A stretch of 64,000 bases of DNA, from NCBI GenBank assembly GCA_050117845.1, contig JASFLY010000003.1, forward strand, positions 124,949 through 188,948, given 5' to 3'. This stretch comes from Candidatus Zixiibacteriota bacterium. GTDB taxonomy: Bacteria > RBG-13-66-14 > B26-G2 > WVWN01. The notes below the pieces were generated by a model. That model was not told the DNA's origin. It saw nothing but the letters and a program-made list of their open reading frames with translations, and did no database searches. This document shows positions 3,873 to 37,128 of the stretch, piece by piece (positions within the stretch are counted from its first letter, which is position 1; each line of letters begins with the position of its first letter). Made by a program: the position numbers and the translations under genes.

Positions 3873-6236
3873 ATGACGGGTAACGGCCTTCGCGTCCTTA
3901 TCGGATGGAAGGAGATCGCGAACTACCTGGGTTGTTCTACCTCGACGGCGGTACGCCGCGTGGACGACGGCCTACCGGTCTTCCGCGTGGGGGGAAGCGT
4001 CCGGGCCTTCGTCGACGACATCGACCGCTGGCTAGAGGGTGAACGTATCCGGAAGTTGGAGGAGCCGCCCAAGGCCGAGACCGATTACCCGGGGATCGTG
4101 GTCAACCGCGAAGAGCTCGGCGACACCATGGCCTCCTTCGCCCGCGAAAGGAAAGACGAACGCTTCGCCGTAATCCCACTGGGAATCGATACCTCCAAAT
4201 ACGAAAACATAGAACTTCGGCTGAAAACGGCCGAAGAAAAGTACCGTTGGTTGTTGGAGACTGTCCCGGTTTGGATTTGGGAAACGAACGCCGACGGAGA
4301 ATATACGTATTCCAACGTCGCTATAAGGGACATACTCGGATACCGGCCGGAAGAGCTCGCCGGTTTCAAACCGGTGGAATTCCTCGTCGCGCCGGCCGAC
4401 GTCGAGATACACAAAAACGAGACCGATAACCTCCGGCAGAATAAAAGAGTTATCCGTGACTTCCAATGTCGCTACATCCACCGGGACACCTCGATCAAAT
4501 GGTTGGAGACGGACGCCGAGCCGATTTTCGAGAGCGGTGGGGAGTTCTCCGGCATCCGGGGCGTCAGCCGCGATATCACCGTACGGAAGAGAGTCGAGGC
4601 CGCGCTCCGGCAAAGCGAGGGCCAGTATCGGACCTTGTCGGAAAACATCCCGGTAGGCGTATTCCGTATGGCCGCGGATCCCACGGGCCGTATCATATCG
4701 GCGAACCCGGCGTTGGCCCGCATGTTCGGGTTCGACAGGCCGGAGGACATGGTGGGCGAACGTATCGCCGATTTCTACGCTGACCCAACACGCCGTTCCG
4801 GGTTCGTCGGGGCCGTCGCCGTTAAGGGCGAGATTACGAACTTCGAGGCGCGCCTCAAACGCCGCGACGGGAGCGAGTTTTGCGGGTCGTTCTCGGCCCG
4901 GGTCGGCCGCGGCGAGGACGACGCCATCGTCCATTACGACGGCGTTTGCGAAGACGTCACGGAACGCCGCCGGGTCGAAACGGCCCTGCGCAAAAGCGAG
5001 CACGAAAAAACAGTTATCCTGGAAAGCATGGCGGAGCTGGTCGTCTACGTAGGCCGCAATCTCGAAATTATATGGGTGAACCAGGCCGCCGCCCGTTGGG
5101 CCGGGGCCGCCCCCGAGGACATGGTGGGCCGGCCGTGTTTCGAGGCTTGGTACGAGAGAAGCGAGATGTGTGCGGAATGCCACGTTAAGCGGGCCATAGA
5201 AACGGGCGAACCCCAGGAATTGGAGCTGACCACCGCCGACGGCAGCATCTGGCACGTACAATGCAATCCCGTACGGGACGAGGAGGACGGTATCTGCGGA
5301 GCGGTGGAGGTATCGCTGGACATCACCGAGCGCAAACGGGCCGAAGAGGCACTACGCGAAACGTTAACGAAAAACGACGCCCTCCTGGAAGCCATCCCCG
5401 ATTTGATGTTCATTCTCAAGCGCGACGGAACATGCGTCGATTTCAAGCGCGGCCCGGCTGAACTATTCGCCCTGCCGCCGGATCAATTAATAGGCGCGAA
5501 TATCCGGGATATCGGCTTTTCCCAAGCCGACGAACGGCGGGCCTTCGAGGCGATTGAGGAAACGATACGAACCGGCAAGACCAGCGTCATCGAGTACGAG
5601 CTCCCCATACCCGGCGGTCTGAAGACGTTCGAAGCCCGTCTGGCCAAACTCGACGACGACCGAGTCATATCCGTCGTGCGAGATATAACGGAAATAAAAA
5701 AAGCGGAACGGGCCCGGGCCGAACTCGTTTTCGAGAAGGCCGCCGCCGCCATCTCCCGGGAATTCATCCGCGCCCGGAATATGGACGAAGCAGTGGAAGC
5801 TTCGCTCGAGATAATGGTCAACTTCAACGGGGCCGGCCGCTCATACTTGCTTACTTTATCGGAGGACGGCAAGGAAATAACTAACACCTACGAGCGCCTG
5901 TCCCCCGGCGTAGGGCCACGACCAGAGGAATTACGCCGGGTTCCAACCGATCCGTACGTATGGGGCACGGCGCAACTCCGTCAGGGCGAACCTCTAAGTA
6001 TTTCCGACGTCCGGGCCCTGCCCCATGAAGCCGCAGCGGAGAAGAAAACCCTCGAGGAACTCGGCGTCAAGGCCGTTTTGGTATTGCCGTTGTTCACCGA
6101 AAAAGATGAGCTCCGCGGTTTCGTCGGTTTCGATAATTGCACCGCGCCCGGCGATTGGAAAGAAGTCGACCTTGATCTGCTCCGATATTTCGCCGAGACT
6201 TGGCAATACGCCGTAAGCCGTAACCTTTTCGAATAA
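3873..6236 (+). CDS. one-component regulator: N-terminal excisionase/MerR-like HTH + multiple PAS domains + C-terminal GAF-like domain
   Basis: N-terminus LIGWKEIANYLGCSTSTAVRRVDDGLPVFRVGGSVRAFVDDIDRWL matches HTH_17/excisionase-type DNA-binding domains; at least four PAS units separated by DITVRKR/DVTERRR/DITERKRAEEAL/DITEIKKAE linker helices; one PAS carries CFEAWYERSEMCAECH; no kinase domain. Confidence 0.8.
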   Translation: MTGNGLRVLIGWKEIANYLGCSTSTAVRRVDDGLPVFRVGGSVRAFVDDIDRWLEGERIRKLEEPPKAETDYPGIVVNREELGDTMASFARERKDERFAVIPLGIDTSKYENIELRLKTAEEKYRWLLETVPVWIWETNADGEYTYSNVAIRDILGYRPEELAGFKPVEFLVAPADVEIHKNETDNLRQNKRVIRDFQCRYIHRDTSIKWLETDAEPIFESGGEFSGIRGVSRDITVRKRVEAALRQSEGQYRTLSENIPVGVFRMAADPTGRIISANPALARMFGFDRPEDMVGERIADFYADPTRRSGFVGAVAVKGEITNFEARLKRRDGSEFCGSFSARVGRGEDDAIVHYDGVCEDVTERRRVETALRKSEHEKTVILESMAELVVYVGRNLEIIWVNQAAARWAGAAPEDMVGRPCFEAWYERSEMCAECHVKRAIETGEPQELELTTADGSIWHVQCNPVRDEEDGICGAVEVSLDITERKRAEEALRETLTKNDALLEAIPDLMFILKRDGTCVDFKRGPAELFALPPDQLIGANIRDIGFSQADERRAFEAIEETIRTGKTSVIEYELPIPGGLKTFEARLAKLDDDRVISVVRDITEIKKAERARAELVFEKAAAAISREFIRARNMDEAVEASLEIMVNFNGAGRSYLLTLSEDGKEITNTYERLSPGVGPRPEELRRVPTDPYVWGTAQLRQGEPLSISDVRALPHEAAAEKKTLEELGVKAVLVLPLFTEKDELRGFVGFDNCTAPGDWKEVDLDLLRYFAETWQYAVSRNLFE

Positions 6237-9176: not shown

Positions 9177-9300
9177 CGTCTTATGCCGGAGATTGGCGGA
9201 TCCCCGGTAACGATTGACGAATTTCCCGGGTCCCCGAAAAGAAAGCTAAAACAGACAACCCCGGGACCAATGAGAGATAAGCTAAGGAGGTGCCTTATTA

Positions 9301-23836: not shown

Positions 23837-24829
23837 ATGTCCGTAAAGCGTGCGGAACGGCTCTTTCATATGATAAGTATATTAAGGACGGGACGGGGAT
23901 ATACCGGGGCCGAGTTGGCCGACGTCATGGGCGTTTCCCAACGGACGGTTTACCGAGACGTCGTCGACCTGTCGGGACTGGTGCCCATATATTACGACGA
24001 CGGGTACCGGCTCCTGTCCGATACTTTCCTGGCCAACCTCACTTTCACGCGCGAAGAATTGGTGGCCCTCAAGCTGGGCGTACAGATGCAGGCGCTGGCC
24101 GAAGCCTCTCACCTCGGCGCCGCGACCCAATCCGTCCTCGCGAAAATCGACGAACAGCTGGAACGCCGGTTCCAGGGCGAGGCGGACGACGGCGACGTAA
24201 TATCGGTCCACGTGAAGGCTCACCCGATGGGAGAGAAGACGGTGCGGGTCCTACGAGACCTGGAGGACGCGGTACGGCGCCGCCTGACCGTCGAATTCTC
24301 CTATTACACGCTCAGCCGAAACGAGAAGACCAAACGGACGGTCGACCCGTACGGCCTGACGTTCCGACGCCATAGCTGGTACCTGGTGGGCTATTGCCAC
24401 CTTCGCCACCAGGCGCGCGTATTCCGTCTCGATCGGATCTCCTCCGTTGCGGCCACGTCACACAAATTCGAACGGCCCAAGGACTTTTCGCTGGAAGAGT
24501 TCTTCGCCGATACCTGGGAGGTATTCGCCTCCGGCCCTCTGGCCGACGTCGCGTTGCGCTTTTCCCGGCACGCGGAATTCATCGCCCGGCCCACGCTGGG
24601 AGGCCGCGGCGAGTTCAACCTTGAACGAAAAAGCAATAAAATAGTATTTCGCGGAGAAGTCCCTGTAACGGACGAATTCGTACGTTGGCTTCTGACGCTT
24701 GGAGAGAACGTCGAGGTCCTCGAGCCGGCCGAACTCCGCGACAGGGTAGCTTCCCGCCATCGCTCCGCAGCCGAACTCTACGAGCCTATCGTCGCGGAGG
24801 CGGGTTCGCGAGGGATAAACACCGGGTAG
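23837..24829 (+). CDS. WYL-domain transcriptional regulator (HTH + WYL)
   Basis: AAAAGGACGG RBS; N-terminal HTH (YTGAELADVMGVSQRTVYRDV); WYL signature HSWYLVGYCHLRHQARVFRLDRI. Confidence 0.8.
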   Translation: MSVKRAERLFHMISILRTGRGYTGAELADVMGVSQRTVYRDVVDLSGLVPIYYDDGYRLLSDTFLANLTFTREELVALKLGVQMQALAEASHLGAATQSVLAKIDEQLERRFQGEADDGDVISVHVKAHPMGEKTVRVLRDLEDAVRRRLTVEFSYYTLSRNEKTKRTVDPYGLTFRRHSWYLVGYCHLRHQARVFRLDRISSVAATSHKFERPKDFSLEEFFADTWEVFASGPLADVALRFSRHAEFIARPTLGGRGEFNLERKSNKIVFRGEVPVTDEFVRWLLTLGENVEVLEPAELRDRVASRHRSAAELYEPIVAEAGSRGINTG

Positions 24830-24945
24830 GAGGCCGCTTCCCCGTCCCCGGGACGGGGCTGTTTAAGCAGGCGCGCCGCACTTTTCGGGGGATTATCGTC
24901 CGAATGCTCGAGCGACACGGGTACGTCGTAAAAAATAAGGCGGGC

Positions 24946-24966
24946 AACGAGCGCGCCTCGTTTTAC
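24946..24966 (+). terminator. weak terminator-like hairpin downstream of WYL gene
   Basis: AACGAG-CGCGC-CTCGTT followed by TTTTA; short stem. Confidence 0.3.
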
Positions 24967-25185
24967 GTTATCGATATTGTCCGTTTCCCTTCCGTTTTCC
25001 AAACCCTTACTAACGTCAAAGGCTTGTCCGAAGCCGTTACCAGGGCCGCCCCGTCGGCGTTCCACCGTACGACCGGGCGGACCGTATTGTAGCGCCGTTC
25101 CCCGAAAGCGGAACGGGCCGGCGAATAGGGCGGACGTAAGTCGCGCCCGACAATTTAAGATAGAAATTTGACAAGCGTAATGGGG

Positions 25186-25212
25186 GCCCGGGGATTACGG
25201 TCCGGGCTTTTT
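25186..25212 (+). promoter_or_regulatory. terminator/attenuator-like hairpin in the 5' leader of the RT-sensor gene
   Basis: GCCCGG-N10-CCGGGC + TTTTT ending 3 nt before the GAGGAGG RBS (25216-25222) and ATG 25231; a third CCCGGG at 25224-25229 allows alternative pairing over the RBS; TTGACA hexamer at 25168-25173. Confidence 0.4.
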
Positions 25213-25230
25213 CCCGAGGAGGTCCCGGGA

Positions 25231-28200
25231 ATGGACTTTTGTTCGGCGGACGACCTGGCGGCGGCGTGGCCCTACGCCCGTCGGGATGCCGCGGACAATT
25301 TCGTCTTCGACGTTATCGATTATGAAGACGTCAAACATAACCTGCCGCATATAATCCGGCGGCTCGAGCGCGAACTCCGGACGGACCAGTATAAACCGGC
25401 CCCCCTTCTGTCCGTCGATATACCGAAAAGGCCCTACACCATCCGCCCGGGCGCAGTCGTCTCTTTAATCGATTTAATCGTACTTTACGCCCTGGTCAGG
25501 AAAATAGCGCCGGCCCTCGACGCGAAATTATCGCCCGGCGTATTCTCCTACCGTTGGGTCCCCGAGGGAAAAAAGCCCAAGTGGTCCATCTTCTCGGAAT
25601 CGACCCAGGACGAATGCGGCATCGACGAAATCCTCCCCGCCGCGCCGTTCGCTCCGTACCCTCCTTTCGACGAGGCCGCGCCGGCGGGATGGTTCCGGGG
25701 GTGGATAGAATATCACGAGCGCGCGAAAGATTCCGCCGCCCGCTATAATTATTGCGCCGTCGGCGACGTTACAGCCTATTTCGAAAACGTCGCCGTGACG
25801 TCGCTCTTCAACCGTATAGGGGACCTCCTCGGCCCGGAGCACTCGGAAGCCCTCACCCGCCTCCGCCGCTTCTACGAGTATTGGGCCTGGCATCCAGCCG
25901 GTACGACCACGCGCGGCGAAGTCCTCCCCCAGGGCAACGATATATCGCTCTTCCTCTCGAATTTCTATCTGACGAAACTCGACGAGGCCATGGCGGCCGA
26001 AGTCCAGAACGACCCCCGCCGGTACTTTCGCTACGTCGACGACATCTGCGTCTTCACCGATACCCAGGAGCAGGCCCACCACTCCCTCCTCACCGGCGAC
26101 CGGGTGCTGCGCGATCTGGGGCTGAACCTTAATACGGAGAAGACCGGGATCGTTCCCACATCCCGCCTCTTCGACCGGGACGTGGAGCGCTGGCTCGAGG
26201 ACATGTCGCCCGTTACGGCCAACGCCGCCGAGAACGCCCGTGACTTCTTTAAGAACCGCTTCGACGCCGACGACGTCGAGAAGTGGGAACGCGCTTACCT
26301 GCGGGCCTTAACGACTCTCCAAAGAGCCGGCGACTGTTCGGTCGCCCCCGCCGCCCTTCAGGTTTTCCTGGAGAACCCCACGTACAAACTGCTGGTTAAA
26401 AATTTCGATTACCTTAGCTTCTTCGCGGAGCGTTTCCGATTCGGCGACGACGTCGCCCGCCGGATCACCGAGGGAACGTTCAACTTTCCATTCCACAAAC
26501 ACTACCTTTACCGCCTGGCTGCTTACTGCCGGCAGAACTCCCCTTCTCTCCGCGAGCAAGCTCTGGAAGAAGCCCGCGGCGACGCCGAATGGTACGTCCG
26601 AATCGCCGCGTTATACTGCCTGAACACGTTCAACCTTTCGCCCGACGAACTCGACGCCGTCGAGGAACTGGCGGGCAGCGAGGCCCACCCGCAAGTGGCC
26701 CGCGCCGCGCTCGTCGTTTTGCGACAACGGCCGGCCGACGAGGTCGCCTCGGCCGAGGATCATTTCCTCTTTACCACCGCGCCCGGCCAGGAGAACCTAC
26801 GCGAATATTTCTTCCGCCTCACGACCGAAGAGGAATTGGCGCGTGCCGTCCTCGAGCGGATCCGGAACCAGGAGGTGGCCTCGCGCGCTTTCCTGAACCG
26901 CCTCCACCAACTGGACCTCCTCAAGGGCAATCCCGCCGTCCGCGAGGAATACGGCCGGATCCTCGAACAAAAGATAGACGAATGCGACCCGGCCTGGACC
27001 CGCCTCTATAGCCGCCTCCGGCGCATCGCCGAACTGGCGTCGGTAAGTGCGTTGCGCGTTCGAAAAGCGCGCAAAATCGCCCGGGCGCAAGGCCACCTTC
27101 AAACCCTGCTGCGAAGCTCGCGCGAGGCCGTCCTTATAACCGGCCCGGGAGGAGACGTCCAGGTCTGGAACGACGCCGTGAACAAACTCCTCGGTTACGG
27201 CCGCCGCGAGGTCCGCGGGAAAGACGTGACCGACATCTTGCCTTCCCCCGGCGGCTTCGCGTCCGCGGACGAACTCACGGCATACGTCGCCGAGAACGGC
27301 GGATGGCTCGTCGAGGAGGCAACCCTTTACGAGCGGCCGGACGGCGCGCTGATTGACATTTCCACCACCTATTCCGTTATCACGGATCCCATTACGGGCG
27401 AGCCGGTCGGCCTCCTTATCCTTGTACGCGACGCGACCGCCGAAGTACGGGCCGCCCGCATCGAACAGGTACAAATCGCCACCGAACAAACCCTGGCCGA
27501 CGCCACGGTCCGGCTTGTCTCGCCGGAAGACCTGGACGCCGCCATTGAGCACACCCTGCGAGAGACGGCGGACGTGCTGAACGCGCAACGGGCCACCGTT
27601 TTCCGTTTCAGGGAAGGAACACTCGTCCTCGATGTAACCCACGAATGGTGCGCGCCCGGCGTCCCTTCGACCCGCGACTCCGGAGGAAAACTGGACCTCG
27701 GCGAACTCCCGGACGTCCGCGAGCGCTTGCATTCCGAGCGCGTCCTTTCGATATCGAACCTCTCCACTCCCAGCGCCGGGAGTCAACGGGTGATGAAGGA
27801 ACGGGGTGTCAAAGCGGCCCTCGTCGTCCCGTTCTATATTTCCGACGAGATGACCGGCCTAATAGCGTGCACCGATACGACCCGGCCTCGCGACTGGGCG
27901 TACGGCGAGGCCAATCTCCTCTTCGCCGTAACGGCGCTTATCTCGAAAGCTCTGGCGCGCCGGGAAGCGGAGGAGGAAAAGCTGGTGAGCGAGGTCCGCT
28001 ACCGGGCCGTCGTCGAAGACCAAACGGAGCTGATATGCAGATGGCGGCCCGACGGGACCCTTACCTTCGTTAACGAGGCTTACGGCCGGTATTTCGGGAA
28101 ATCGCCCGGCGAACTGGTGGGCCGGAGTTTCATCCATTTTATCTCGGAGGAGGATCGCGAAACCGTCGAGGCCGAATTCGCGTCTCTGGGTCCGGACAAA

Positions 28201-31200
28201 CCATCCTCGACGCATGAACATCGCGTTACGACGCCGGCCGGTGAAGTCCGTTGGCAGCAATGGACCAACCGCGTCATCATTGACGAGCACGGCGCAATAT
28301 CGGAATACCAATCCGTAGGCCGCGACATTACGGAGCGCAAACTCGCCGAGGAAGCCCTCGACTTCGAGCGCCGCCAACTCTTGTCGATCTACGATAGCGT
28401 CGAGGAAGTCGTTTACGTCGCCGACCCCCGGACCCACGAAATCATATACGCCAACGAGTACTTGAAATCGCTGTACGGAAAAGACATGGTAGGCGGCGTA
28501 TGTTACCGGGAATTCCAGGGGCTGGAGGCCCCCTGCGATTTCTGCACGAACGGAATAATACTCGAACAAAAAGGCAAGGCGTACCGTTGGGAATTCCACA
28601 ACGAAATACTAGACAAGTCCTTCCTGTGCACCGACCGGATAATTAAATGGCCCGACGGCCGGGACGCCCGGATCGAAATCGCCATAGACATCAGCGACCG
28701 CAAAACCGCCGAAGAAGCTCTGCGGAAGAGCGAAGAGGAATTCCGCGCGCTCGCGGAGCAGTCCCTCCAGGGAGTTACCCTCGCGACGGAGGATCGGACC
28801 ATCTTCGCTAATCGGGCTTTTTACAACATCACCGGCTACGAGCCGGACGAGATAATCGGCCTGACGCCGGGCGAAGTCGCCACCCTAATCATCCGGCCGG
28901 AGGACAGGGAAACCGTTAAAAAGAACTTCCGGCGCCGCATGGACGGAGAAAGCGCTCCTTCGCCGTACGCCGTGGGAATACTCCATAAGAACGGCTCCAC
29001 CCGGTGGGCCGAGTTATACTGCACGATCGTCGATATCGGAGGGCCGCCGGCGAATCTTACCACGCTCGTCGACATAACCGAACGGAAGCGGGCCGAGGAA
29101 GCGATCAGGGAAAGCGAGGTCAAGTACCGAACGTTGTTCGAGAACTCGCCGGACGCTCTTACGATACTCGACACCCGCGCGGTCATTAGCGACCTGAACC
29201 GGGCGACCGAAGAACTAACGGGGTACTCGCGGGAAGAGCTACTGGGGCGGCCCTTCGTAGAAATCCCGTCACTACGGGCCCAAAAACGGGCCCGCCTGCG
29301 GAAACTGCATTCCGACCTCGTCGCGGGCCGTGAGGCCGAACCGTACGAATTGGAAATCGTACGACGGGACGGGACCCGTCGATGGGTAAACGTTACGGTC
29401 GCCGCAATTAAAAAAGGGTCGGACCTTATAGGAACGCAGCTGATAGGCCGCGACGTTACCGAACGCAAACTCGCCGAAGAGAAGATAAAACGCCGTTTGG
29501 AATTTGAGGGCGTAGTCGCCCGCATCTCGTCGCGCCTCGTGGCTCCGGCGGACGTCGACCGGGCCGTAAACGAATCGTTGGCCGATATAGGCCGGTTCCT
29601 CGGAGCCGGCCGAGTACCACTATTCCTATTGAGCCGGGACGGCAGCGAGATGTCCATCAGCCACGAGTGGTGCGCCGCCGGCGTAAAAAGCCTGATCGGA
29701 GAGCTGCAAGGGGAGCCCACGTCGGGAATCCCGTGGTGGACGGACCGACTCGGCGGGGGGGAAGTGCTGCACATACCGGACGTATCGCGAATGCCGCCGG
29801 AAGCCGCCCCGGAACAGAAAATCCTGGAGGGACAGGGGATTAAATCCATCCTCGTATTGCCCGTCGAGATCGGCGGGAGTTTCAGCGGCTTCGTCGCGTT
29901 AGACAACGTCGAGGGAACCGGCGGCTGGGACGTGGACGACGTGGAACTCCTCCGCGTTATGGCCGCGGACCTCGGCCGGGCCTTCGAACGACAACGAGCG
30001 GAAAGCATCCTCCGGGAAAACGAGGAACGTTACCGCGACCTGGTGGAAGGTTCCCATGATCTCGTCCAAAGCGTCGCCCCCGACGCCCGCTTCCTATTCG
30101 TCAACCGGGCCTGGCTCAGGACGATGGGCTACGCCGAAAGCGAACTTCCGAACCTCACCCTTTTCGACGTTATTCATCCGGACTACGTCGGGCACTGCCA
30201 GGAATTGTTCCAGCATGTTATGCGCGGCGAAACCGTTAGCGATATCTCGGTCAAGTTCGTGACGAAGGACGGCCGCGAAATCATCCTCGACGGCACGGCG
30301 GGGCCGCGTTTCATGAACGGCGAAGTCGTGAGCACGCAGGGTTTCTTCCACGACGTAACCGAGCGTAAACGCGCCGAAGAAAAACTCAAGCGCCATAGCG
30401 AAGAAATAGCCGCCGTCAGCGAACTGGCCATAGAACTCGCCGGCGTCGATACGAGTGAAGAGATGTTCCCCCTTATCGCCCGCCGCCTCCGGGAGCTTAC
30501 CGGCGCTTTGGCCGTCCTGACGACGTCTTACGACTACGAGGCCGATGAATTGGCCGTCAACGCCGTCGAAGCCGACGTTAGCACCCTGGACAAAACGAAC
30601 GATATCCTGGGCGCGGAGCTTTCGACGATACGCTTCCCGTTTCCGATATATTCCCGCGAAGCCCTGGCTTCCGAACACGTCGCCGTAACGACGGGCATCC
30701 CCCACCAGGCCCACGCCGTCATTCCGAAAAACGCGTGCCGAGTAATCGAGGAAGCCTTCGGCATCGGCGACGTTTACATTTTAACGTTCCACTTCGGCGG
30801 GGACATGATCGGCGCTGCCGGCATTATTATGCAGCGAGAGACTACCCGGCCTTCCGTCGATACGCTGGAGGCCGCGGCCAACACGATCGCCACCACCCTC
30901 CGGTCCAAACTCGCGGAGGAAGCCCTGGTCGCCAGCGAGCGCGAGAAGACGACCATACTCGAATGCGTGGACGATATGGTCGTTTTCTGTAATTCGGAAA
31001 TGGAAACGGTCTGGGCCAATCCCGCCGCGGCCGCGTGGCACGACATGACGCCCGAAGAAATGGTAGGCCGCCGTTGCTACGAAGAACGCTACGGCCGGAC
31101 CGATCCCTGCGAGGACTGCGCGGAAGTCGAAGCGCTGAGAACCGGCGAACCCCGGGAAATCGAAACCACGTCCCCCGACGGCCGGTCATGGTACAACCGA

Positions 31201-34200
31201 AGCATACCCGTCACCGACGATTCGGGCGCCGTCGTCGGCGTCGTAACCACCACGCAGGAAGTAACGGCTCGTTACCACGCCAGGGAAACGTTAAAACAAC
31301 GGGCGACGAACCTGGCCGCGATAAACGACCTGGCCGTCGAGCTGGCGTCGGCTCCCTCCGCCGACGCGATCCGCCGGATAGCCGGCGACCGGTTGAGAAC
31401 GTTGGGCGGCGCCCTGGCCGCGATAGTCACGAGTTACGACGAAGAGGCCGGAGTTTTCGTCGTCCGCCATATTTCCGCCCCCGGCGACGTTTTCACCAAA
31501 GCCAATAAAATCCTGAACGGCACCGTTTACGACATTCGTTGTCCCGTTGACGACGACGCGTACGAAGAGATCCTGGCCCGCCGGGTTAAACCATACGAAG
31601 GCGTTTACGATCTGGCGTTGGGCGCCATTCCACGAAAATTGGCGACCGCCATCGAAAAAGCCCTCGGCCTCGGCGAAATAATCGCCGCCGGGTTCCGGCA
31701 CGGGGGACGCGTACTAGGCGGAATCTCCGTCGTCATGCCGGAAGGGCGCCCCGCGCCGGACGCCGAAATACTCGAAAACTTCGCCAACGTCGTATCGTCG
31801 GCGCTCGTCCGGCAGGCCGCCGACGAATGGCTCGTAAAAAGCGAACGGGAGAAATCGGCGATACTGGCGAACATGACCGGCCTCGTCGCCTACATGAAAC
31901 CGAACCTCGAAATCGTGTGGGCGAACGATGCCGCGGCCGACTGGGCGGGCCTCACGCCGCGAGAGATGGCCGGCCGGTACTGCTACGACGTCTGGTACGG
32001 ACGGACTAAACCCTGTAAGCGTTGTCACGTCGTACGCACGGTGGAAAGCGGCGAGGCCCAAACGTTCGAGACCGATTTCAGAGACGGCAGCGTCTGGCAC
32101 GTCCAATGCAATCCGGTACGTAACGCCGCCGGAGAAGTCGTGGGCATCGTCGAAACCTCTACGGACATCTCCGCCCGGAAACGGGCCGAAGAAAGCCGCC
32201 GCGAAACGGAAGCGCGGTACCGCGCGCTCGTCGATACCATGAATGATGGATTCATCGCGCACGACGAGCGGGGCGTAATCACGTACGTCAACGACCGTTT
32301 GTGCGAAATACTCGGCTTCCCGCGCGAGAATATCGAAGGCCGGCCGATGGACGACTTCCTCGATCGGGAAAACGCGGCAACCCTGCGGGAACGACGCCGC
32401 CTTAAAAAACCGCGGGCGGAAGCGTACGAACTTTGTTGGACAGGCGAAGGCGGCCGACGCGTATACACCGTAGTCTCGCCGGGAACCCTACCGAAGACCG
32501 AAGGCCGGTCCGCCGGCGGTTACGCCACGATTGCCGACATTACCGTCCGTAAACGAGCGGAAGAAAACCTCCAACGTCGAAGCGACGATATCGTAGCGGC
32601 CAACGGCCTTATCCTCGAACTCGCCGCGGCCCGCACGCCCGCGGAGGCCGCAGAGATACTTTGCGAAGGGTTGAAACGTCTCACCGAAGCACTCGCTATC
32701 GCCCTTTTGAAATACGACGTTAATACGCGCGAACTGGTTATCGAATACGTAGCCGCGGAAAACGACGTCAAATCCGAATCCGGGAAAATACTGGGGGGCG
32801 AACTGTCCTCGCTCCGCTTCCCGTTGGACCGAGCCGGGGCCGACGAACTCGTAAACCGCCGCGTCGCGGCAACGAAGGGTCTCCCCCGCAACGTTTACGG
32901 CGGTGTTCCGCGAAAGGACGTCCGCGCCTTCGAAGAAGCCCTGGGCTTGGGTGAAGTCTACGTCCTACCGCTCCAGCACCGGGAAGGACTGATGGGGACG
33001 GTCGCCATAGTGACCCGGGACGAAAACCCGCCCCTCTGGCCCGGAGCGGTTGAGGCCGTTGTCGCCGCCGCGGCGGCAGTACACGAACGCGTCGAAGCCG
33101 CCGAAAAACTCCGCGCGAGCGAGGAAACGGCGCAGGTCCTGCTGAACGCGCCCGCTAATTCGGCGTTCCTTCTCGACGCCGAAGGTACGATCCTCGCTTT
33201 CAACGAAACGACGCGATGCCGAACCCGCCTCGGCGCCGAAGATTTGCGAAGCGCGTCGTTGTGGGAAATCCTCCCGCCCGCGGTCGTCGACGCCCGGAAA
33301 GGCCAACTCGAAGAGGTCGTCCGTACAGGCCGCCCCGTCCATTTCGAAGAGAAGCGACCAGGCTCGGCCTTCGAAAGCTACTTCCACCCGATACGAGGGC
33401 CGCACGGCGTTACCAACGTCGCCCTATTTTCATGGCCCGTAACTCTCCGAAAAGAAATCGAAGAGAAACTGGCCGAGCCGAAAAAGGACTTCCGGCCCGC
33501 AGCCGAGGCTTCGCCGGTCGCGGCGTTGGTGCTAAACCACAGCGGGGGAATCTCCTGGGTTAACAAGGCCGCGCTAAGCCTATTCGGCTACGCCAAGAAA
33601 GGCCAAATGAAACGACTGCCGCTCCGGGAACTCTTCCACGCCGAGGACGAAAAAGAGATGGAGCGGGTAATGGACCTCGCGGCCGGTAGCGCTACGACGT
33701 ACGCCGGATTTACGGCTCTTACCGTCAACGGCGAAAGGCGGCCGACCGTCGCCCGGGCGGCGCCCGTATTCGAGGACGGTAAACGCCGGGGGGTACGGGT
33801 ACTCGTGGACGACGTAAGCGAACGCGTACGTACCGCGGAGGCCCTGGCCGCCGGCGTCGACCCGACGGAACTGCTGTCGACGCTAACGAGTTCTTACGCC
33901 GTTGTCGCGGACGGCAAGGGAGCCGTAACGGCCGTGAATACGAATACCGAAACGCGGCTCTGCAAACCGGCGGACGACGTTATCGGCACGCATTTCGAAT
34001 TTACCGTTCCGCGTGGGACGGAGGAGTCCAGGAAGCAGGCCTTCGAAGAAACGCTACGTTCGGGGAAAGCCGTGCTATTCGAGGACGAAACCACCGCCGC
34101 GACGTACGAGAACGACCTCTACCCCATACTAGACGGCGAGGGTAACGTCTCCCGCGTAGCGTTCTTCAGTCGCGACGTAACCGGGTCAAAAGCGACCGCC

Positions 34201-34656
34201 GAGGCCCTCAGCGCGACCGAAGCGAAGACCCGCCTCCTAGCCAACCAAATACCGGCGATTATTTGGACGACCGACGACGAACTCCGGATAACGTCCCTGC
34301 ACGGCGGCGGCCTGGCGTTTATCGAGACGCCGCCCGCGGAACTCCGGGGTAAAACGCTACCCGAGCTCTATGGCACCAACGAGGTCACGTCCACGGTCAT
34401 TGCGGCCCACCGGCAAGCGCTCCGGGGCGAAGTGGCGACTTACGACCAGGAAATCGGCTCTCGGACATTCCAGGCTACGGTGGAGCCGTGTAGGGACGGA
34501 GAGGGCCGCGTAGTCGGATGCGTCGGCGCGGCCCTCAACGGCCTGACGCTTTACGGCAAAATAAACGGTCCCGCCCGGACCGGCGGCGATCCCGGCGAGA
34601 AGTCAACGTCGCCGGAGTACCCGCCTCGACCCAAGCCGAGCTCGACGGGGTCCTAA
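25231..34656 (+). CDS. giant (~3141 aa) reverse transcriptase - PAS/GAF sensor-array fusion protein
   Basis: Start taken at ATG 25231 (GAGGAGG RBS 8 nt upstream) rather than TTG 25168; RT motifs in canonical order: NYCAVGDVTAYFENV, LPQGNDISLFLSNFYL, YFRYVDDICVF (YVDD at 26032-26043); then helical domain, then >=10 PAS units with DITERK(R/L)AEE-type linkers and ~5 GAF-like units; no kinase/GGDEF/EAL/HD/DNA-binding output. Confidence 0.85.
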   Translation: MDFCSADDLAAAWPYARRDAADNFVFDVIDYEDVKHNLPHIIRRLERELRTDQYKPAPLLSVDIPKRPYTIRPGAVVSLIDLIVLYALVRKIAPALDAKLSPGVFSYRWVPEGKKPKWSIFSESTQDECGIDEILPAAPFAPYPPFDEAAPAGWFRGWIEYHERAKDSAARYNYCAVGDVTAYFENVAVTSLFNRIGDLLGPEHSEALTRLRRFYEYWAWHPAGTTTRGEVLPQGNDISLFLSNFYLTKLDEAMAAEVQNDPRRYFRYVDDICVFTDTQEQAHHSLLTGDRVLRDLGLNLNTEKTGIVPTSRLFDRDVERWLEDMSPVTANAAENARDFFKNRFDADDVEKWERAYLRALTTLQRAGDCSVAPAALQVFLENPTYKLLVKNFDYLSFFAERFRFGDDVARRITEGTFNFPFHKHYLYRLAAYCRQNSPSLREQALEEARGDAEWYVRIAALYCLNTFNLSPDELDAVEELAGSEAHPQVARAALVVLRQRPADEVASAEDHFLFTTAPGQENLREYFFRLTTEEELARAVLERIRNQEVASRAFLNRLHQLDLLKGNPAVREEYGRILEQKIDECDPAWTRLYSRLRRIAELASVSALRVRKARKIARAQGHLQTLLRSSREAVLITGPGGDVQVWNDAVNKLLGYGRREVRGKDVTDILPSPGGFASADELTAYVAENGGWLVEEATLYERPDGALIDISTTYSVITDPITGEPVGLLILVRDATAEVRAARIEQVQIATEQTLADATVRLVSPEDLDAAIEHTLRETADVLNAQRATVFRFREGTLVLDVTHEWCAPGVPSTRDSGGKLDLGELPDVRERLHSERVLSISNLSTPSAGSQRVMKERGVKAALVVPFYISDEMTGLIACTDTTRPRDWAYGEANLLFAVTALISKALARREAEEEKLVSEVRYRAVVEDQTELICRWRPDGTLTFVNEAYGRYFGKSPGELVGRSFIHFISEEDRETVEAEFASLGPDKPSSTHEHRVTTPAGEVRWQQWTNRVIIDEHGAISEYQSVGRDITERKLAEEALDFERRQLLSIYDSVEEVVYVADPRTHEIIYANEYLKSLYGKDMVGGVCYREFQGLEAPCDFCTNGIILEQKGKAYRWEFHNEILDKSFLCTDRIIKWPDGRDARIEIAIDISDRKTAEEALRKSEEEFRALAEQSLQGVTLATEDRTIFANRAFYNITGYEPDEIIGLTPGEVATLIIRPEDRETVKKNFRRRMDGESAPSPYAVGILHKNGSTRWAELYCTIVDIGGPPANLTTLVDITERKRAEEAIRESEVKYRTLFENSPDALTILDTRAVISDLNRATEELTGYSREELLGRPFVEIPSLRAQKRARLRKLHSDLVAGREAEPYELEIVRRDGTRRWVNVTVAAIKKGSDLIGTQLIGRDVTERKLAEEKIKRRLEFEGVVARISSRLVAPADVDRAVNESLADIGRFLGAGRVPLFLLSRDGSEMSISHEWCAAGVKSLIGELQGEPTSGIPWWTDRLGGGEVLHIPDVSRMPPEAAPEQKILEGQGIKSILVLPVEIGGSFSGFVALDNVEGTGGWDVDDVELLRVMAADLGRAFERQRAESILRENEERYRDLVEGSHDLVQSVAPDARFLFVNRAWLRTMGYAESELPNLTLFDVIHPDYVGHCQELFQHVMRGETVSDISVKFVTKDGREIILDGTAGPRFMNGEVVSTQGFFHDVTERKRAEEKLKRHSEEIAAVSELAIELAGVDTSEEMFPLIARRLRELTGALAVLTTSYDYEADELAVNAVEADVSTLDKTNDILGAELSTIRFPFPIYSREALASEHVAVTTGIPHQAHAVIPKNACRVIEEAFGIGDVYILTFHFGGDMIGAAGIIMQRETTRPSVDTLEAAANTIATTLRSKLAEEALVASEREKTTILECVDDMVVFCNSEMETVWANPAAAAWHDMTPEEMVGRRCYEERYGRTDPCEDCAEVEALRTGEPREIETTSPDGRSWYNRSIPVTDDSGAVVGVVTTTQEVTARYHARETLKQRATNLAAINDLAVELASAPSADAIRRIAGDRLRTLGGALAAIVTSYDEEAGVFVVRHISAPGDVFTKANKILNGTVYDIRCPVDDDAYEEILARRVKPYEGVYDLALGAIPRKLATAIEKALGLGEIIAAGFRHGGRVLGGISVVMPEGRPAPDAEILENFANVVSSALVRQAADEWLVKSEREKSAILANMTGLVAYMKPNLEIVWANDAAADWAGLTPREMAGRYCYDVWYGRTKPCKRCHVVRTVESGEAQTFETDFRDGSVWHVQCNPVRNAAGEVVGIVETSTDISARKRAEESRRETEARYRALVDTMNDGFIAHDERGVITYVNDRLCEILGFPRENIEGRPMDDFLDRENAATLRERRRLKKPRAEAYELCWTGEGGRRVYTVVSPGTLPKTEGRSAGGYATIADITVRKRAEENLQRRSDDIVAANGLILELAAARTPAEAAEILCEGLKRLTEALAIALLKYDVNTRELVIEYVAAENDVKSESGKILGGELSSLRFPLDRAGADELVNRRVAATKGLPRNVYGGVPRKDVRAFEEALGLGEVYVLPLQHREGLMGTVAIVTRDENPPLWPGAVEAVVAAAAAVHERVEAAEKLRASEETAQVLLNAPANSAFLLDAEGTILAFNETTRCRTRLGAEDLRSASLWEILPPAVVDARKGQLEEVVRTGRPVHFEEKRPGSAFESYFHPIRGPHGVTNVALFSWPVTLRKEIEEKLAEPKKDFRPAAEASPVAALVLNHSGGISWVNKAALSLFGYAKKGQMKRLPLRELFHAEDEKEMERVMDLAAGSATTYAGFTALTVNGERRPTVARAAPVFEDGKRRGVRVLVDDVSERVRTAEALAAGVDPTELLSTLTSSYAVVADGKGAVTAVNTNTETRLCKPADDVIGTHFEFTVPRGTEESRKQAFEETLRSGKAVLFEDETTAATYENDLYPILDGEGNVSRVAFFSRDVTGSKATAEALSATEAKTRLLANQIPAIIWTTDDELRITSLHGGGLAFIETPPAELRGKTLPELYGTNEVTSTVIAAHRQALRGEVATYDQEIGSRTFQATVEPCRDGEGRVVGCVGAALNGLTLYGKINGPARTGGDPGEKSTSPEYPPRPKPSSTGS

Positions 34657-34719: not shown

Positions 34720-35985
34720 TCACGCGACCGGTGCGGCCGTACGAATACGTTCCTCTGTTGCGTCCGCGGTCAGGCCCTCGGCCGGGTCCGCCGTCGGCAG
34801 CAATCCGCCTTTCGTCGAAGCCAATACGTCGTAGTAGAGTTCCCGGATATCGCGGCCCAGGCGCTCGAGCGTAAAACGCCTCTCGTACGTCTCCCGGCCG
34901 AGCGCCCCCATCGACGCGGCCAGCGACGCGTCGTCAAGCGTGTGAGCCAGCGCCGCCGCCACTTCGCCGGCCGACCCGACGTCGGTTAAAAAGCCCTCGC
35001 GGCCGTCTTCCATGATTTCCGCGACGCCGCCCGCCCGCGCGGCCACGACCGGGACGCCGCGGGCCATAGCCTCCACTACGACGCGGCCGAAGGGCTCGGC
35101 CTTCACCGGCGTATGGACCAGGACGTCGAACGCCTCCATGGCCCGGGCCGCGCCGTCCAGTTGCCCCGGGAAACGGACCCGCGCTCCCAAACCCGCGCGA
35201 CGGACCCGGTCCAGGAGTTCCGCCCGGTACGAGTGGGCGCCGTAGAGCGGGCTCCCGATAACGACGAAATAAACGTCCGGGAAATCGGCCGCGAGGCGAG
35301 CCGCGGCGTCCAGGAAAACGTGTTGGCCCTTCCACGGCGCGAGTTGCCCCACGCAGCCCACGATTCGGGCGTCCGCCGGTATGGCCCACTCCTCCCGCCA
35401 CCGATCCCCGTCCCGGCGAGGATACGCCGGCGGACGGGCCACGGCGTTATACACGACGGCCACGCGCCGTCGCGCGCGACGGAACTGCCCGGCTACGGTC
35501 CGGGATATCGCGACGACGCGCTCGGCGCTTATAGCCGCCAAGAGGTCCATGATCCCCCGGGCGAAGCGACCCGGGAGAACGTCCCGCATGTGCCACACCA
35601 GCGGGACGTCCGAGGCCACCGCGGCGAGGGCCGCGAAGACGTGAGCTTTCTGGCTGTGAGTATGGATCAGGTGCGGCGAGGCCGCGTCTATAACGCGACG
35701 GAGACTACGGGCCGTCCCGAACGCCCGGAATACCTGGCGCCACCAGCTTACGGAAAGCGGAGAGATATCCTCGCGGTGAAAGGTTAACAGGGACGCGTCC
35801 GCCCGGTAATAGTAGATACGTTCGCCCCGCTCGGCCAGAGCCCGGGCCAACGGCCCCGGCCCCGGCACCGCGAACGATATTTCATAACGCTTGCGGTCGA
35901 AAGTCCCGGCCAACTCCATCATGCTCCGTTCGCCGCCGCCTACCGTAGTGGCGTGGTCGACGAATAACAACCGCGTCCTAACCAT
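34720..35985 (-). CDS. glycosyltransferase family 4 (GT-B)
   Basis: EPFGRVVVEAMARGVPVVAARAGG matches the GT4 E-x-FG...EAMA-x-G-x-PVV motif. Confidence 0.8.
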   Translation of the reverse strand: MVRTRLLFVDHATTVGGGERSMMELAGTFDRKRYEISFAVPGPGPLARALAERGERIYYYRADASLLTFHREDISPLSVSWWRQVFRAFGTARSLRRVIDAASPHLIHTHSQKAHVFAALAAVASDVPLVWHMRDVLPGRFARGIMDLLAAISAERVVAISRTVAGQFRRARRRVAVVYNAVARPPAYPRRDGDRWREEWAIPADARIVGCVGQLAPWKGQHVFLDAAARLAADFPDVYFVVIGSPLYGAHSYRAELLDRVRRAGLGARVRFPGQLDGAARAMEAFDVLVHTPVKAEPFGRVVVEAMARGVPVVAARAGGVAEIMEDGREGFLTDVGSAGEVAAALAHTLDDASLAASMGALGRETYERRFTLERLGRDIRELYYDVLASTKGGLLPTADPAEGLTADATEERIRTAAPVA

Positions 35986-35991
35986 ATCGGC

Positions 35992-37128
35992 TCACCTCGT
36001 ATCGCTGATGCGACCTACGACCGCCGCTTCGAAACTAGCCACTTGCGACGGCACGGTGAATTCCCGTAATACGCGCTCACGGCCGGCGTCGCCCAGACGC
36101 CGCGCCTCGCCCGGATACGTCAACAACGCCACTACCGCGGCGGCCACTTCCGCCGGACATTCCGGATCGACCAAAAGGCCCGTGTGGCCGTCGTCCACGG
36201 CGTCCAACGCGCCGCCGCACCGTCCCGCCACGACCGGCTTGGCGAAGAGCGACGCCTCCAAAAAAACCAATCCGAAACCCTCGTTCTTCTCGACTCCGTC
36301 CTCGACCACTCGTCGGTTCGGCATAACGAAGACGTCGCACGCCCGGTAGTACGGCGCCACGTCTTCCACTCGCCCCCAGAATACGACGTTGTCGGCCACG
36401 CCCGACTCCTCGGCGAGGTCGCGCAATCGGGCCTCGTCGTCGCCGGCCCCGACGATCCAGTAGTAACAGCGTGGGACACAACGGACTATGAGCGGCATGG
36501 CCCGGATCACGACGTCGTGCCCCTTGTAGCGCTCGTCGCCTCGCAGGCGCGCGACCGAAAGGATTACCCGTTCCCCCGCGTTCTTCAATCCCGGGCTCGA
36601 CCCCCCGTTGCCGGAAGCCTCCACCAACTCGGGCGCCACCCCCGGACGGATAACGTCGACGGCCTCCCGGGGCAGGCCGAACCGCGATACGACCAGACTC
36701 CGGCCGTAACGACTCCCGGTAAGGATCCCGGCGGCGCGCCTGAGCAGGAACGTGAACAGGCGTCGATATCGTTCCGGAGTTATCTCGAGCGCGTGCACGT
36801 AGACGAGATAGGGTTTGCGATATATGGTCCCGAGTAAGTACGCGGCCGGGGCCGCGGCGACGTGTCCGCAAAATAATACGTCGCAATCCGCCGCAAGCGG
36901 CGTCGCCGCCCGGGCCATGTTCGCCATCCGGCCCACCCGTGAGTCGGACGGGGCGTAACGGCGAACGCGGTAAATCAACCCGGCGTCAAACTCGTCGGCC
37001 CCCGCCGACGCCGGCGCCACCACCGTCACGTCGTTTCGGGCCGCGAGGCCTGCCGCGATCCCGGCCAGAAGCGTCTGCACGCCGCCCGGTTCGGGCGGGA
37101 AATCCGGAGTTAGGACGAGATAACGCAC
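35992..37128 (-). CDS. glycosyltransferase family 4
   Basis: EGFGLVFLEASLFAKPVVAGRCGG motif; N-terminal MRYLVLTPDFPPEPGGVQT typical of GT4. Confidence 0.8.
   Translation of the reverse strand: MRYLVLTPDFPPEPGGVQTLLAGIAAGLAARNDVTVVAPASAGADEFDAGLIYRVRRYAPSDSRVGRMANMARAATPLAADCDVLFCGHVAAAPAAYLLGTIYRKPYLVYVHALEITPERYRRLFTFLLRRAAGILTGSRYGRSLVVSRFGLPREAVDVIRPGVAPELVEASGNGGSSPGLKNAGERVILSVARLRGDERYKGHDVVIRAMPLIVRCVPRCYYWIVGAGDDEARLRDLAEESGVADNVVFWGRVEDVAPYYRACDVFVMPNRRVVEDGVEKNEGFGLVFLEASLFAKPVVAGRCGGALDAVDDGHTGLLVDPECPAEVAAAVVALLTYPGEARRLGDAGRERVLREFTVPSQVASFEAAVVGRISDTR

Follow-up and report, generated by a model that had tools for sequence, protein, structure and literature searches.

Four PAS units encoded by two genes of a Candidatus Zixiibacteriota contig belong to a subfamily of cytoplasmic PAS domains that is large, widespread and, it appears, uncharacterised so far, and that can now be recognised in sequences by a C-x10-C-x2-C triad and a glutamate on strand Iβ. 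The site formed by the three cysteines and the glutamate may well hold a metal centre, most probably an Fe–S cluster, for redox sensing. PAS domains are among the commonest intracellular sensors, and a ligand has been assigned to only a minority of them; the subfamily described here comprises hundreds to thousands of bacterial and archaeal sensor proteins, often with two to three copies each.

A cysteine triad shared by four PAS units

A six-frame scan of the whole window (the 64,000-nt stretch of DNA that was analysed) recovered the exact C-x10-C-x2-C motif in four PAS units, three of which (A, B and C) lie in a giant gene of 3,141 codons and one (H) in an HTH-PAS-GAF gene. All four triads are in the coding frame (Table 1) and share one PAS-unit column in a four-unit alignment. 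Only two further matches were found in the window, both in non-coding frames and with different spacing. The initial annotation had described a Cys-rich PAS motif of the form Cx8-9CxxC, with a CDFC variant near position 28540: the motif is indeed present in the four units, albeit with a Cx10CxxC spacing throughout, and the variant corresponds to the triad of unit A. The PAS fold is recognised by matches to the Pfam PAS_4, PAS_9 and PAS_10 profiles and by a five-stranded β-sheet with a helical lid.

The occurrence of the motif in the four units exceeds chance, because a family profile gives these units 92–140 bits and the other PAS units of both proteins (about 13) no more than 27 bits. Of the 228 domains used to build the profile, 225 came from other proteins, and unit H was outside the training set. 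All four units thus combine the triad with a high family score, and A, C and H also carry Glu105, which is replaced by a threonine in B. Among the four, only C and H have a histidine directly after CxxC and the additional cysteine of the WHVQC sequence; the cysteine of FLCTD in unit A aligns approximately with the latter column, in which unit B has none. Since unit B lacks His63, Cys90 and Glu105, its site may be degenerate. An acidic residue is found two positions after the first cysteine in B, C and H. Many foreign domains of the CDFC-TN sub-type, to which unit A belongs, share 55–60% identity with it.

Table 1. Features of the window. Triads are in the coding frame, within ORF 25168-34656 (units A, B and C) or ORF 3873-6236 (unit H).
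Feature	Position	Strand	Cys triad	Other residues	Support
HTH_17–4 PAS–GAF one-component regulator gene, 787 aa, MGD8717857.1, carries unit H	3873..6236	+			
Cys-PAS unit H, third PAS of the preceding gene	4998..5345	+	5136-5180, CFEAWYERSEMCAEC	His63 5181-5183; Cys90 5262-5264; Glu105 5307-5309	family HMM 140.2 bits; Pfam PAS_4, PAS_10 over same residues
HTH_11-WYL-WCX regulator gene, immediately upstream of giant RT-PAS gene	23837..24829	+			
Giant gene, 3,141 aa, NCBI MGD8717875.1, Candidatus Zixiibacteriota MAG	25231..34656	+			
Cys-PAS unit A, CDFC-TN sub-type, giant gene, ORF aa 1068-1182	28369..28713	+	28501-28545, CYREFQGLEAPCDFC	Glu105 kept	family HMM 91.9 bits
Divergent GAF domain, copy	30379-30936				
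Cys-PAS unit B, giant gene, ORF aa 1924-2039	30937..31284	+	31075-31119, CYEERYGRTDPCEDC	no His63, Cys90 or Glu105 (Thr)	family HMM 117.6 bits; alignment
Divergent GAF domain between units B and C, one of three copies	31285..31842	+			
Cys-PAS unit C, giant gene, ORF aa 2226-2341	31843..32190	+	31981-32025 (C48/C59/C62), CYDVWYGRTKPCKRC	His63 32026-32028; Cys90 (WHVQC) 32107-32109; Glu105 32152-32154	family HMM 127.5 bits; motif; codons checked; AF2 pLDDT 94
Divergent GAF domain, copy	32563-33120				

Size of the family and conserved residues

A profile of the four units retrieved 2,426 representative proteins at E ≤ 1e-30 among 1.84 billion cluster representatives. The best 150 representatives contained 222 exact-motif domains in 135 proteins, with a median domain score of 91 bits as compared to 22 bits for the motif-less PAS units of the same proteins. 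As a control for circularity, the Cys, His63 and Cys90 columns were masked from the profile before rescoring: the triad was present in 108 of the 110 domains (98%) scoring at least 80 bits and in only 2% of those below 25 bits.

Several other positions distinguish Cys-PAS domains from other PAS domains: Glu105 (84% versus 6%), Tyr49 (81% versus 21%), Pro58 (68% versus 17%), Pro63 (67% versus 14%) and Trp86 (68% versus 23%). In the 228 family domains, the residue after CxxC is a proline in 67% and a histidine in 4%, and the position of the WHVQC cysteine is occupied by Gly, Ala or Ser in most, so that this fourth cysteine is not conserved; Glu or Asp is found at C48+2 in 59% of family members. 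The residues specific to the family as a whole are the three cysteines and the Iβ glutamate only, and it is this glutamate, not the WHVQC cysteine, that is the conserved fourth candidate ligand.

The family spans many phyla, its hosts are generic multi-PAS kinases, and half of the carrier proteins hold at least two Cys-triad PAS domains. Among the carriers in the sample are methanogens, Desulfobacula, Nitrospirota, Caldisericia, Anaerolineales, Kiritimatiellia and one Hyphomonadaceae MAG, and none of about 11 PAS loci sampled in cyanobacteria encodes a Cys-PAS domain. The link to anaerobes is drawn from this small and unsystematic sample, in which one carrier is the Hyphomonadaceae MAG. Neither a Pfam or NCBIfam model specific to Cys-triad PAS domains nor a solved structure or publication on the subfamily was found. 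In the only related RT-PAS protein found (L081), the family-positive units have altered patterns (Cx10Cx6C and C...HC, C59 being replaced by a proline), which shows the Cys site to be evolutionarily plastic. The refuting condition set by the initial annotation, a lack of conservation of the Cys positions in orthologues, was addressed in part, with foreign family domains and L081, since no true domain orthologue was found.

Position of the conserved residues in the PAS fold

The AF2 model of unit C (pLDDT 94.2) is a canonical PAS domain, predicted with confidence without any cofactor. In this model, helix Eα starts with C48, and C59 and C62 immediately precede helix Fα, C59 in the Eα–Fα loop and C62 at the Fα N-cap, so that CxxC stands at the N-terminus of a helix; residues 90 and 105 belong to strands Hβ and Iβ, respectively. 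HMMER alignment to LOV structures superimposes C48 on the photoactive cysteine, residue 62 on an Fα Val/Arg, residue 90 on an Hβ Leu/Ile and Glu105 on an Iβ glycine. In LOV2, the positions matching C48, 62, 90 and 105 line the flavin cavity. From the LOV alignment and the secondary-structure register, the triad and Glu105 are thus predicted to occupy positions lining the canonical PAS cofactor cavity.

LOV domains are the best PDB sequence matches of the Cys-PAS units, whose first cysteine aligns with the photoactive cysteine of GxNCRFLQ and whose residues 62, 90 and 105 align with flavin-lining positions. However, the units lack the NCRFLQ motif, the flavin-binding Asn/Asn/Gln and the Iβ Gln, only the cysteine being aligned; LOV domains, for their part, lack CxxC and score at most 38 bits, as compared to 90–190 bits within the Cys-PAS family. 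A LOV identity was rejected on account of the missing GxNCRFLQ motif and flavin-binding residues.

Both proteins are cytoplasmic. No signal peptide or membrane segment was found in either the giant protein or the HTH protein, which begin with an RT domain and an HTH domain, respectively. The maximal 19-residue Kyte–Doolittle mean is 1.95 in the giant protein (inside the RT core) and 1.06 in the HTH protein, and neither contains a TM-like segment.

Nature of the cofactor

The idea that these domains bind a metal or redox cofactor is supported by the family-wide conservation of the site and by the mapping of the conserved residues to cavity-lining positions. The motif, the family and its conservation pattern, the fold, the cytoplasmic location and the pocket mapping were established directly, whereas we infer that a metal is bound, which cofactor this is and which signal the domains sense. 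The three cysteines, together with Glu105 or an exogenous ligand, would hold the predicted Fe–S cluster in the PAS cavity, and in the rarer sub-variant represented by C and H the fourth cysteine, on Hβ, may join as a ligand. Oxidation, loss or ligand exchange of the centre would alter the helical lid and the β-sheet, and the change would travel via the PAS/GAF array to the effector, usually a histidine kinase elsewhere and here the HTH DNA-binding domain or the UG21 reverse-transcriptase module. Ferredoxin motifs (CxxCxxCxxxCP) share their Cys-Pro ending with the Cys-PAS motif, which is weak evidence; the absence of Glu105 from unit B and the altered patterns in L081 count against an Fe–S cluster. 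If the Fe–S assignment is correct, the family would be by far the largest group of Fe–S PAS sensors, beside the isolated NreB and OrpR, and a redox, O2 or NO input could be assigned to many orphan kinases of anaerobes.

The PAS domain of OrpR, a sigma54 activator of the anaerobe Desulfovibrio vulgaris Hildenborough, binds a redox-sensing [4Fe-4S] cluster through C52/C61/C65 and has a conserved Asp/Glu at C+2, and its fourth ligand may be a carboxylate (PMC8359166). Like the Cys-PAS units, it is cytoplasmic and contains three conserved cysteines between Bβ and Gβ, a single one followed by a close pair; an acidic residue stands two positions after the first, as it does in units B, C and H. Unlike them, it is the sole PAS domain, at the N-terminus, of an enhancer-binding protein, and its spacing, compared by published motif, is Cx8Cx3C instead of Cx10Cx2C. 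In NreB of Staphylococcus and Bacillus, a Firmicute HisKA_3 kinase, a CX2CX11C motif holds a [2Fe-2S] cluster with a labile fourth ligand (also a [4Fe-4S] cluster), and there is no Glu, Asp or His in a radius of 8.7 Å around the irons (PMC13478379). This domain, too, is a cytoplasmic PAS with three cysteines in the helical segment between Bβ and Gβ, and its fourth ligand is non-protein; in the secondary-structure register, two of the three cysteines lie at +20 and +35 from Bβ in NreB and at +20 and +34 in Cys-PAS. However, the order of its cysteines is reversed relative to the single cysteine and pair of Cys-PAS, the NreB-type CX2CX11C(X2C) motif is found in none of the four units, and Glu105, specific to the Cys-PAS family, has no equivalent near the NreB irons. 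Because motif order and spacing differ, OrpR and NreB are to be regarded as analogies and not as demonstrated homologues.

Three cysteines and a carboxylate fit Zn(II) or another thiophilic metal equally well. It is nonetheless rather unlikely that, instead of an Fe–S cluster, a mononuclear metal (structural Zn(II), or a sensed thiophilic ion, for example Zn, Cd, Cu(I), As(III) or Fe(II)) is bound by the triad together with Glu, with His or with a fourth Cys. Three cysteines plus one O/N ligand do form a classic tetrahedral Zn set, the model of unit C is confident without a cofactor, and the C/H sub-variant additionally has His63 and Cys90, which tend to occur together (Cys90 is found in 3/8 His-bearing domains versus 3/217 of the others; Fisher p = 6e-4 without phylogenetic correction). 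WalK, cited in PMC10468136 as a cytoplasmic Zn-binding PAS, matches the units weakly in sequence, but its ligands are His/Asp/Glu at another site. Moreover, the known three-Cys PAS sites, those of OrpR and NreB, both hold Fe–S clusters, and the presence of multiple domains per protein, in generic multi-PAS kinases of many phyla, suits a general redox cue better than one specific metal.

A metal-free site, in which CxxC at the Fα N-cap would act as a thiol–disulfide switch with the first cysteine as resolving or partner thiol, is unlikely. The location of CxxC at a helix N-terminus in the model of unit C recalls the thioredoxin/DsbA-type geometry, and MsmS/RdmS of Methanosarcina reportedly exemplify thiol-based redox sensing in PAS/GAF kinases of anaerobes; such a switch would, however, leave unexplained the absolute invariance of the distant first cysteine, the family-specific buried Glu105 and the flanking prolines. 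The CxxCH sequence, which units C and H share with 8/225 foreign family domains, could also suggest a covalent (c-type) or His-ligated haem site, and the Geobacter PAS-like sensors GSU0582/GSU0935, which are periplasmic, reportedly carry c-type haem on CxxCH. In these sensors, the histidine is said to be obligatory and the proteins exported, whereas in the cytoplasmic Cys-PAS family proline is the norm at this position; c-haem is normally attached outside the cytoplasm, and comparison with the PDB, by sequence and by fold, gave LOV and generic PAS domains as the top matches instead of haem-PAS domains. Given that only 4% of the family has the histidine and that both proteins lack a signal peptide as well as any membrane segment, a haem site is extremely unlikely, and a c-type haem PAS sensor was rejected. 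The proposal that three cysteines and a histidine make up a metal-, redox- or haem-binding PAS therefore stands as regards the Cys-rich subtype and a likely metal or redox function, supported by conservation and cavity mapping, but not as regards the histidine, which gives way to proline in most of the family.

The WHVQCNPVR block

The near-identity of the WHVQCNPVR coding sequences of units C (32095-32121) and H (5250-5276) was confirmed (24/27 nt), although the ranges first reported were offset by 6 and 14 nt. It had been taken to suggest domain exchange, an interpretation that does not hold: the three differences are all synonymous third positions, and the identity is accounted for by the identical peptide and codon bias and is not beyond chance. 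Indeed, in the DGS.WHVQCNPVR block, the same codon is used at 9 of the 12 identical residues versus 6.0 expected from the codon usage of the window. A recent exchange or gene conversion between the two genes is thus very unlikely. Over the whole domain, codon sharing shows a slight excess (38/64 versus 31.6 expected), but C and H are only 61% identical in nucleotides and 54% in amino acids, and their mutual score (126 bits) does not exceed the score of each with a domain of the unrelated metagenomic protein P0003 (137 bits). The W.V.C[DN]PV block and CxxCH also recur in P0003, P0046 and P0102, likewise unrelated metagenomic proteins. Within the giant gene, units B and C arose by tandem duplication of a GAF+PAS module (about 303 aa, a divergent GAF and the following PAS), the copies of which have only 37% identity left.

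A UG21 reverse transcriptase fused to a PAS/GAF array

The giant gene starts at ATG 25231 within its ORF and encodes a UG21-type reverse transcriptase with HEAT-like repeats (approximately 25231-27075), after which come some 12 PAS domains and 5 or more GAF domains; the protein contains neither a kinase nor any other output domain. The N-terminal ~615 aa match PADLOC RT_UG21 (E = 5e-72, profile positions 2-482 of 503) and RVT_1, with an intact YVDD and a weak HEAT_2 match, and are 36–44% identical to stand-alone UG21 homologues over 94% of the query. The N-terminus is thus a UG21 reverse transcriptase, a member of the Class 1 UG/Abi, defence-associated enzymes (PMC9226505). Known UG21 proteins (PMC9226505) and the 15 homologues found are stand-alone and ~620 aa long, one with HNH domains; the giant protein, by contrast, carries a further ~2,500 aa of PAS/GAF sensors in the same reading frame, and the UG/Abi survey (PMC9226505) never uses the word PAS. 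The gene is an example of the fusion of a defence-class reverse transcriptase with a large array of sensor domains. We know of no described input logic in which prokaryotic RTs are gated by a redox or metabolic sensor array. Tentatively, and with considerable doubt, the WYL regulator and the UG21 RT–HEAT repeats–PAS/GAF protein might form a conserved system in which the Cys-PAS units, as Fe–S or metal redox/gas sensors, would gate a defence-type (Abi/DRT-like) RT. The RT-PAS fusion recurs in two other metagenome contigs, in one of which (L081) the upstream WYL regulator is also present.

A cysteine triad at one PAS position in two genes

A six-frame regular-expression scan of the 64 kb, part of a Candidatus Zixiibacteriota MAG, for C-x(8-12)-C-x2-C returned six matches, of which four lie in real coding frames: three in the giant gene (units A, B and C) and one in the HTH gene (unit H), both named 'PAS domain S-box protein' by NCBI (MGD8717875.1 and MGD8717857.1, respectively) and each a singleton at 90% identity. 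The giant ORF actually starts at ATG 25231, which is preceded by a GAGGAGG ribosome-binding site. The motif occupies the same PAS-unit column in all four units (alignment A2), with exactly ten residues between the first and second cysteines in each case. The initial annotation had thus noticed something real while mis-describing its details: it gave the spacing as Cx8-9 and a histidine after CxxC, which only units C and H carry, and its ranges for the WHVQCNPVR block, present in both genes, are slightly offset from the coding positions (32095-32121 and 5250-5276). In the numbering of the 118-residue unit (C48, C59 and C62 for the triad), unit B lacks Glu105, His63 and Cys90.

Coordinates of the motifs, loci and model elements (nucleotides, or residues of the 118-residue unit for the model)
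Feature	Positions	Strand	Location or remark
Unit A motif	28501-28545		giant ORF 25168-34656
Unit B motif	31075-31119		giant ORF 25168-34656
Unit C motif	31981-32025		giant ORF 25168-34656
Unit H motif	5136-5180		ORF 3873-6236
HTH_11-WYL-WCX regulator	window 23837-24829	+	directly upstream of RT-PAS gene
Intergenic region, WYL gene to RT gene	24830-25230		400 nt
L081 RT-PAS locus	5995-13902		SDBS01000429.1
WYL regulator of L081	3636-4682	+	upstream of L081 RT-PAS gene
L082 RT locus	6001-7857		ends at contig edge
L083 RT-PAS locus	40-2325
Model strands	Aβ 15-19, Bβ 24-28, Gβ 74-79, Hβ 85-94, Iβ 100-109
Model helices	Cα 30-35, Dα 40-43, Eα 48-53, Fα 63-70

The triad marks a PAS subfamily

A profile of the four units, run against 1.84 billion cluster representatives, retrieved 2,426 proteins at E<=1e-30. 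The best 150 of these contain 658 PAS domains, including 222 with an exact Cx10CxxC, in 135 proteins, and 16 further domains with Cx9, Cx11 or Cx12 variants. Motif-bearing domains have a median score of 91 bits, versus 22 bits for the motif-less PAS units that accompany them in these proteins. As a control for circularity, the three cysteines, His63 and Cys90 were masked in the profile and the domains rescored: the triad was present in 108 of the 110 domains at 80 bits or more, in 80% of those at 60-80 bits and in 2% of those below 25 bits. The presence of the triad thus follows a sequence clade. Within the window, the family HMM scores the four units at 92-140 bits and the other PAS units of both proteins, about 13 in number, at 27 bits or less; the top score belongs to unit H, which was absent from the training set.

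Half of the carrier proteins have at least two Cys-triad domains, and 7 of 10 sampled carriers are histidine kinases. Eighty PAS-array loci from GTDB species, picked by the linker pattern [DE]I[TS]xRKxxE and hence generic PAS arrays, were scanned with the family HMM. Fourteen family domains were found, in Methanomicrobiales, Methanothrix, Desulfobacula, two Nitrospirota, Caldisericia, Anaerolineales, Kiritimatiellia, two Planctomycetota, one Hyphomonadaceae and two unclassified bacteria, and in none of the roughly 11 cyanobacterial loci of the sample, a pattern suggestive of an anaerobe bias.

The subfamily appears undescribed. NCBIfam has no specific model for it, only the generic sensory_box; literature searches on the motif (CX10CX2C and variants) matched nothing but unrelated proteins, reductive dehalogenases among them, and those on Fe-S PAS and PF13596/PAS_10 found nothing specific. 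A homologue search with a single 118-aa unit found none (two word-sharing candidates), and one with alignment A3 gave only short fragments of at most 211 aa. We rate the subfamily as a variant within a known kind, the Cys-ligated metal or Fe-S PAS sensor.

Conserved residues and predicted fold

Column statistics were computed for 228 family domains and for 363 non-Cys PAS units that occur in those proteins. C48, C59 and C62 are invariant in the family. Glu105 is found in 84% of its members versus 6% of the other units, where the position is mostly Gly, as in LOV domains. Further enriched residues are Tyr49 (81% versus 21%), Pro58 (68% versus 17%), Pro81 (61% versus 13%), Trp86 (68% versus 23%) and, directly after CxxC, Pro63 (67% versus 14%); His takes this last place in 4% of the family. 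Glu or Asp stands at C48+2 in 59%. Position 90, where a 'fourth Cys' occurs, is mostly Gly, Ala or Ser, yet Cys90 is present in 3 of 8 His63-bearing domains versus 3 among the 217 without His63 (Fisher p = 6e-4, with no correction for phylogeny). The co-occurrence of His63 and Cys90 places units C and H in a rare sub-variant, to which domains of the foreign metagenomic proteins P0003, P0046 and P0102 also belong. Many foreign domains are 55-60% identical to unit A, a member of a populous 'PCxFCTN' sub-type.

An AlphaFold2 model built with a 36-sequence alignment is a confident PAS fold (pLDDT 94.2, pTM 0.84). In this model Eα begins at C48, the Fα N-cap and the loop preceding it hold C59 and C62, Hβ contains residue 90 and Iβ contains Glu105. 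Among PDB sequences, LOV domains match best: their photoactive Cys aligns with C48, their Fα Val/Arg with residue 62, their Hβ Leu/Ile with residue 90 and their Iβ Gly with Glu105. In LOV2 these four positions line the flavin cavity.

A candidate metal centre

Neither window protein has a TM segment, so that both are predicted to be cytoplasmic. Taken together, the invariant cysteine triad and the buried carboxylate specific to the family, all around the PAS cavity of cytoplasmic proteins whose carriers lean towards anaerobes, point to a Cys-ligated metal centre. The metal or redox role proposed in the initial annotation is therefore plausible and now has family-level support, but its haem reading of CxxCH is not supported: attachment of a c-type haem was rejected given His in only 4% of the family, Pro in 67% and the lack of a TM segment, and we regard a haem site of any sort as very improbable.

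Two experimentally characterized PAS domains offer precedents for such a centre. In OrpR, C52, C61 and C65 hold a redox-sensitive [4Fe-4S] cluster, and a conserved Asp/Glu at C+2 has been proposed as a possible ligand (PMC8359166); in Bacillus licheniformis NreB, CX2CX11C binds a [2Fe-2S] cluster with labile sulfur as fourth ligand (PMC13478379). Both clusters are thus held by exactly three cysteines, drawn from the same Bβ-to-Gβ segment as the family triad. Like OrpR at C+2, 59% of the family have an acidic residue at C48+2, and the NreB cysteines, at +20 and +35 from Bβ, compare with two family cysteines at +20 and +34. Because of these precedents and matches we favour an Fe-S cluster, ligated by the triad at the PAS cavity, over a mononuclear site for Zn or another thiophilic metal, which the thiols might also form but which we consider unlikely, and over a CxxC thiol-disulfide switch, which seems slightly less likely still. 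Oxidation, loss or ligand exchange of the Fe-S cluster would remodel the Eα-Fα lid, and the change in the lid would be signalled through the PAS/GAF array. Taken as a whole, from cluster to array, we give this explanation about an even chance of being right.

The block shared by the two genes

The resemblance of the WHVQCNPVR block between the two genes had been taken as a sign of domain exchange, a proposal that the comparison of units C and H does not support. The 27-mers are identical at 24 of 27 nucleotides and the three differences are all synonymous, a level that fits a conserved peptide and codon usage: over the DGS.WHVQCNPVR block, 9 of the 12 identical residues share a codon versus 6.0 expected from window codon usage, and over the whole domain 38 of 64 do so versus 31.6 expected. 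The two units are only 61% identical in nucleotides (54% in amino acids), and they match each other with 126 bits versus 137 bits for each against the P0003 domain. Since codon sharing only slightly exceeds expectation over the whole domain and P0003 is at least as close, we rejected recent exchange; the block instead reflects selection for the peptide within a sub-clade to which both units belong. Units B and C are tandem duplicates of a GAF+PAS module of about 303 aa, now 37% identical, a duplication that is, judged from the sequences, old.

A reverse transcriptase fused to the sensor array

The most surprising item of the region lies outside the Cys-PAS finding as given. The N-terminal ~615 residues of the giant gene (25231-27075, + strand) correspond to a full-length UG21 reverse transcriptase (RT; Class 1 UG/Abi, 'DRT', defence-associated) with HEAT-like repeats. 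The PADLOC RT_UG21 match has E = 5e-72 and YVDD is intact; the HEAT_2 match is weak. The RT is in frame with about 2,500 aa of PAS/GAF sensors and no other output domain; no kinase or cyclase domain was found in the gene. The HTH gene comprises HTH_17, four PAS domains and a GAF domain.

Fifteen homologues of the RT module are 36-44% identical to it; 14 of them stand alone, with lengths of roughly 570-680 aa that mostly lie close to 620, and the exception carries HNH domains. The six stand-alone homologues aligned end exactly where the PAS array of the window protein starts. A metagenome scan yielded three closer relatives (L081, L082 and L083), with RTs at 63-67% identity. In L081 at least 2,636 codons stay open without interruption, passing from RT through HEAT-like repeats into a PAS/GAF array and running off the locus end; over aa 24-1187 this frame and the window protein are colinear (53% identity). 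L083 has the same RT-to-PAS junction. This open frame and this junction indicate that the fusion is real and recurrent. A survey of UG/Abi enzymes does not mention PAS (PMC9226505).

In L081, aa 920-1043 and 1050-1166 (numbered from L081:5995) are family-HMM-positive (88 and 83 bits). One unit, CYEVTHARSEPCSGAEHLCP, has Cx10Cx6C and keeps Glu105; the other, CYRLIHGTDGPPDHCP, has C...HC, with Pro for C59, His before the last Cys and Glu105 lost. These altered patterns suggest ligand-set plasticity within the family. We rejected the two as domain orthologues of the window units, because their identity to those at the same array positions is only about 25% and colinearity extends only through unit A.

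Directly upstream of the fusion gene, the window and L081 each have an HTH_11-WYL-WCX regulator; defence systems are typically accompanied by WYL regulators. The idea that a conserved ncRNA precedes the RT gene was rejected: an Rfam scan of the window gave no match, and the intergenic region has no detectable sequence conservation with its L081 and L082 equivalents.

Other genes in the window

Between the two PAS genes lie a DUF4388 protein (13110-13940, + strand) and an aminotransferase of class V, from the cysteine-desulfurase-like fold family (11001-12266, + strand). An unusually long one-protein signalling chain is encoded at 17979-22958 (- strand): its 1,659 aa combine a Ser/Thr protein kinase, an AAA_16 STAND-like ATPase and TPR repeats with a GAF domain, a sigma54-interaction AAA+ domain and HTH_8. 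Downstream of the giant gene (34720-39020, - strand) are two GT4 glycosyltransferases and a 636-aa asparagine-synthase-like gene. The ORFs 47072-48982 and 52421-54331 (- strand) are each exactly 636 aa as well; they could be paralogous members of a polysaccharide-type cluster.
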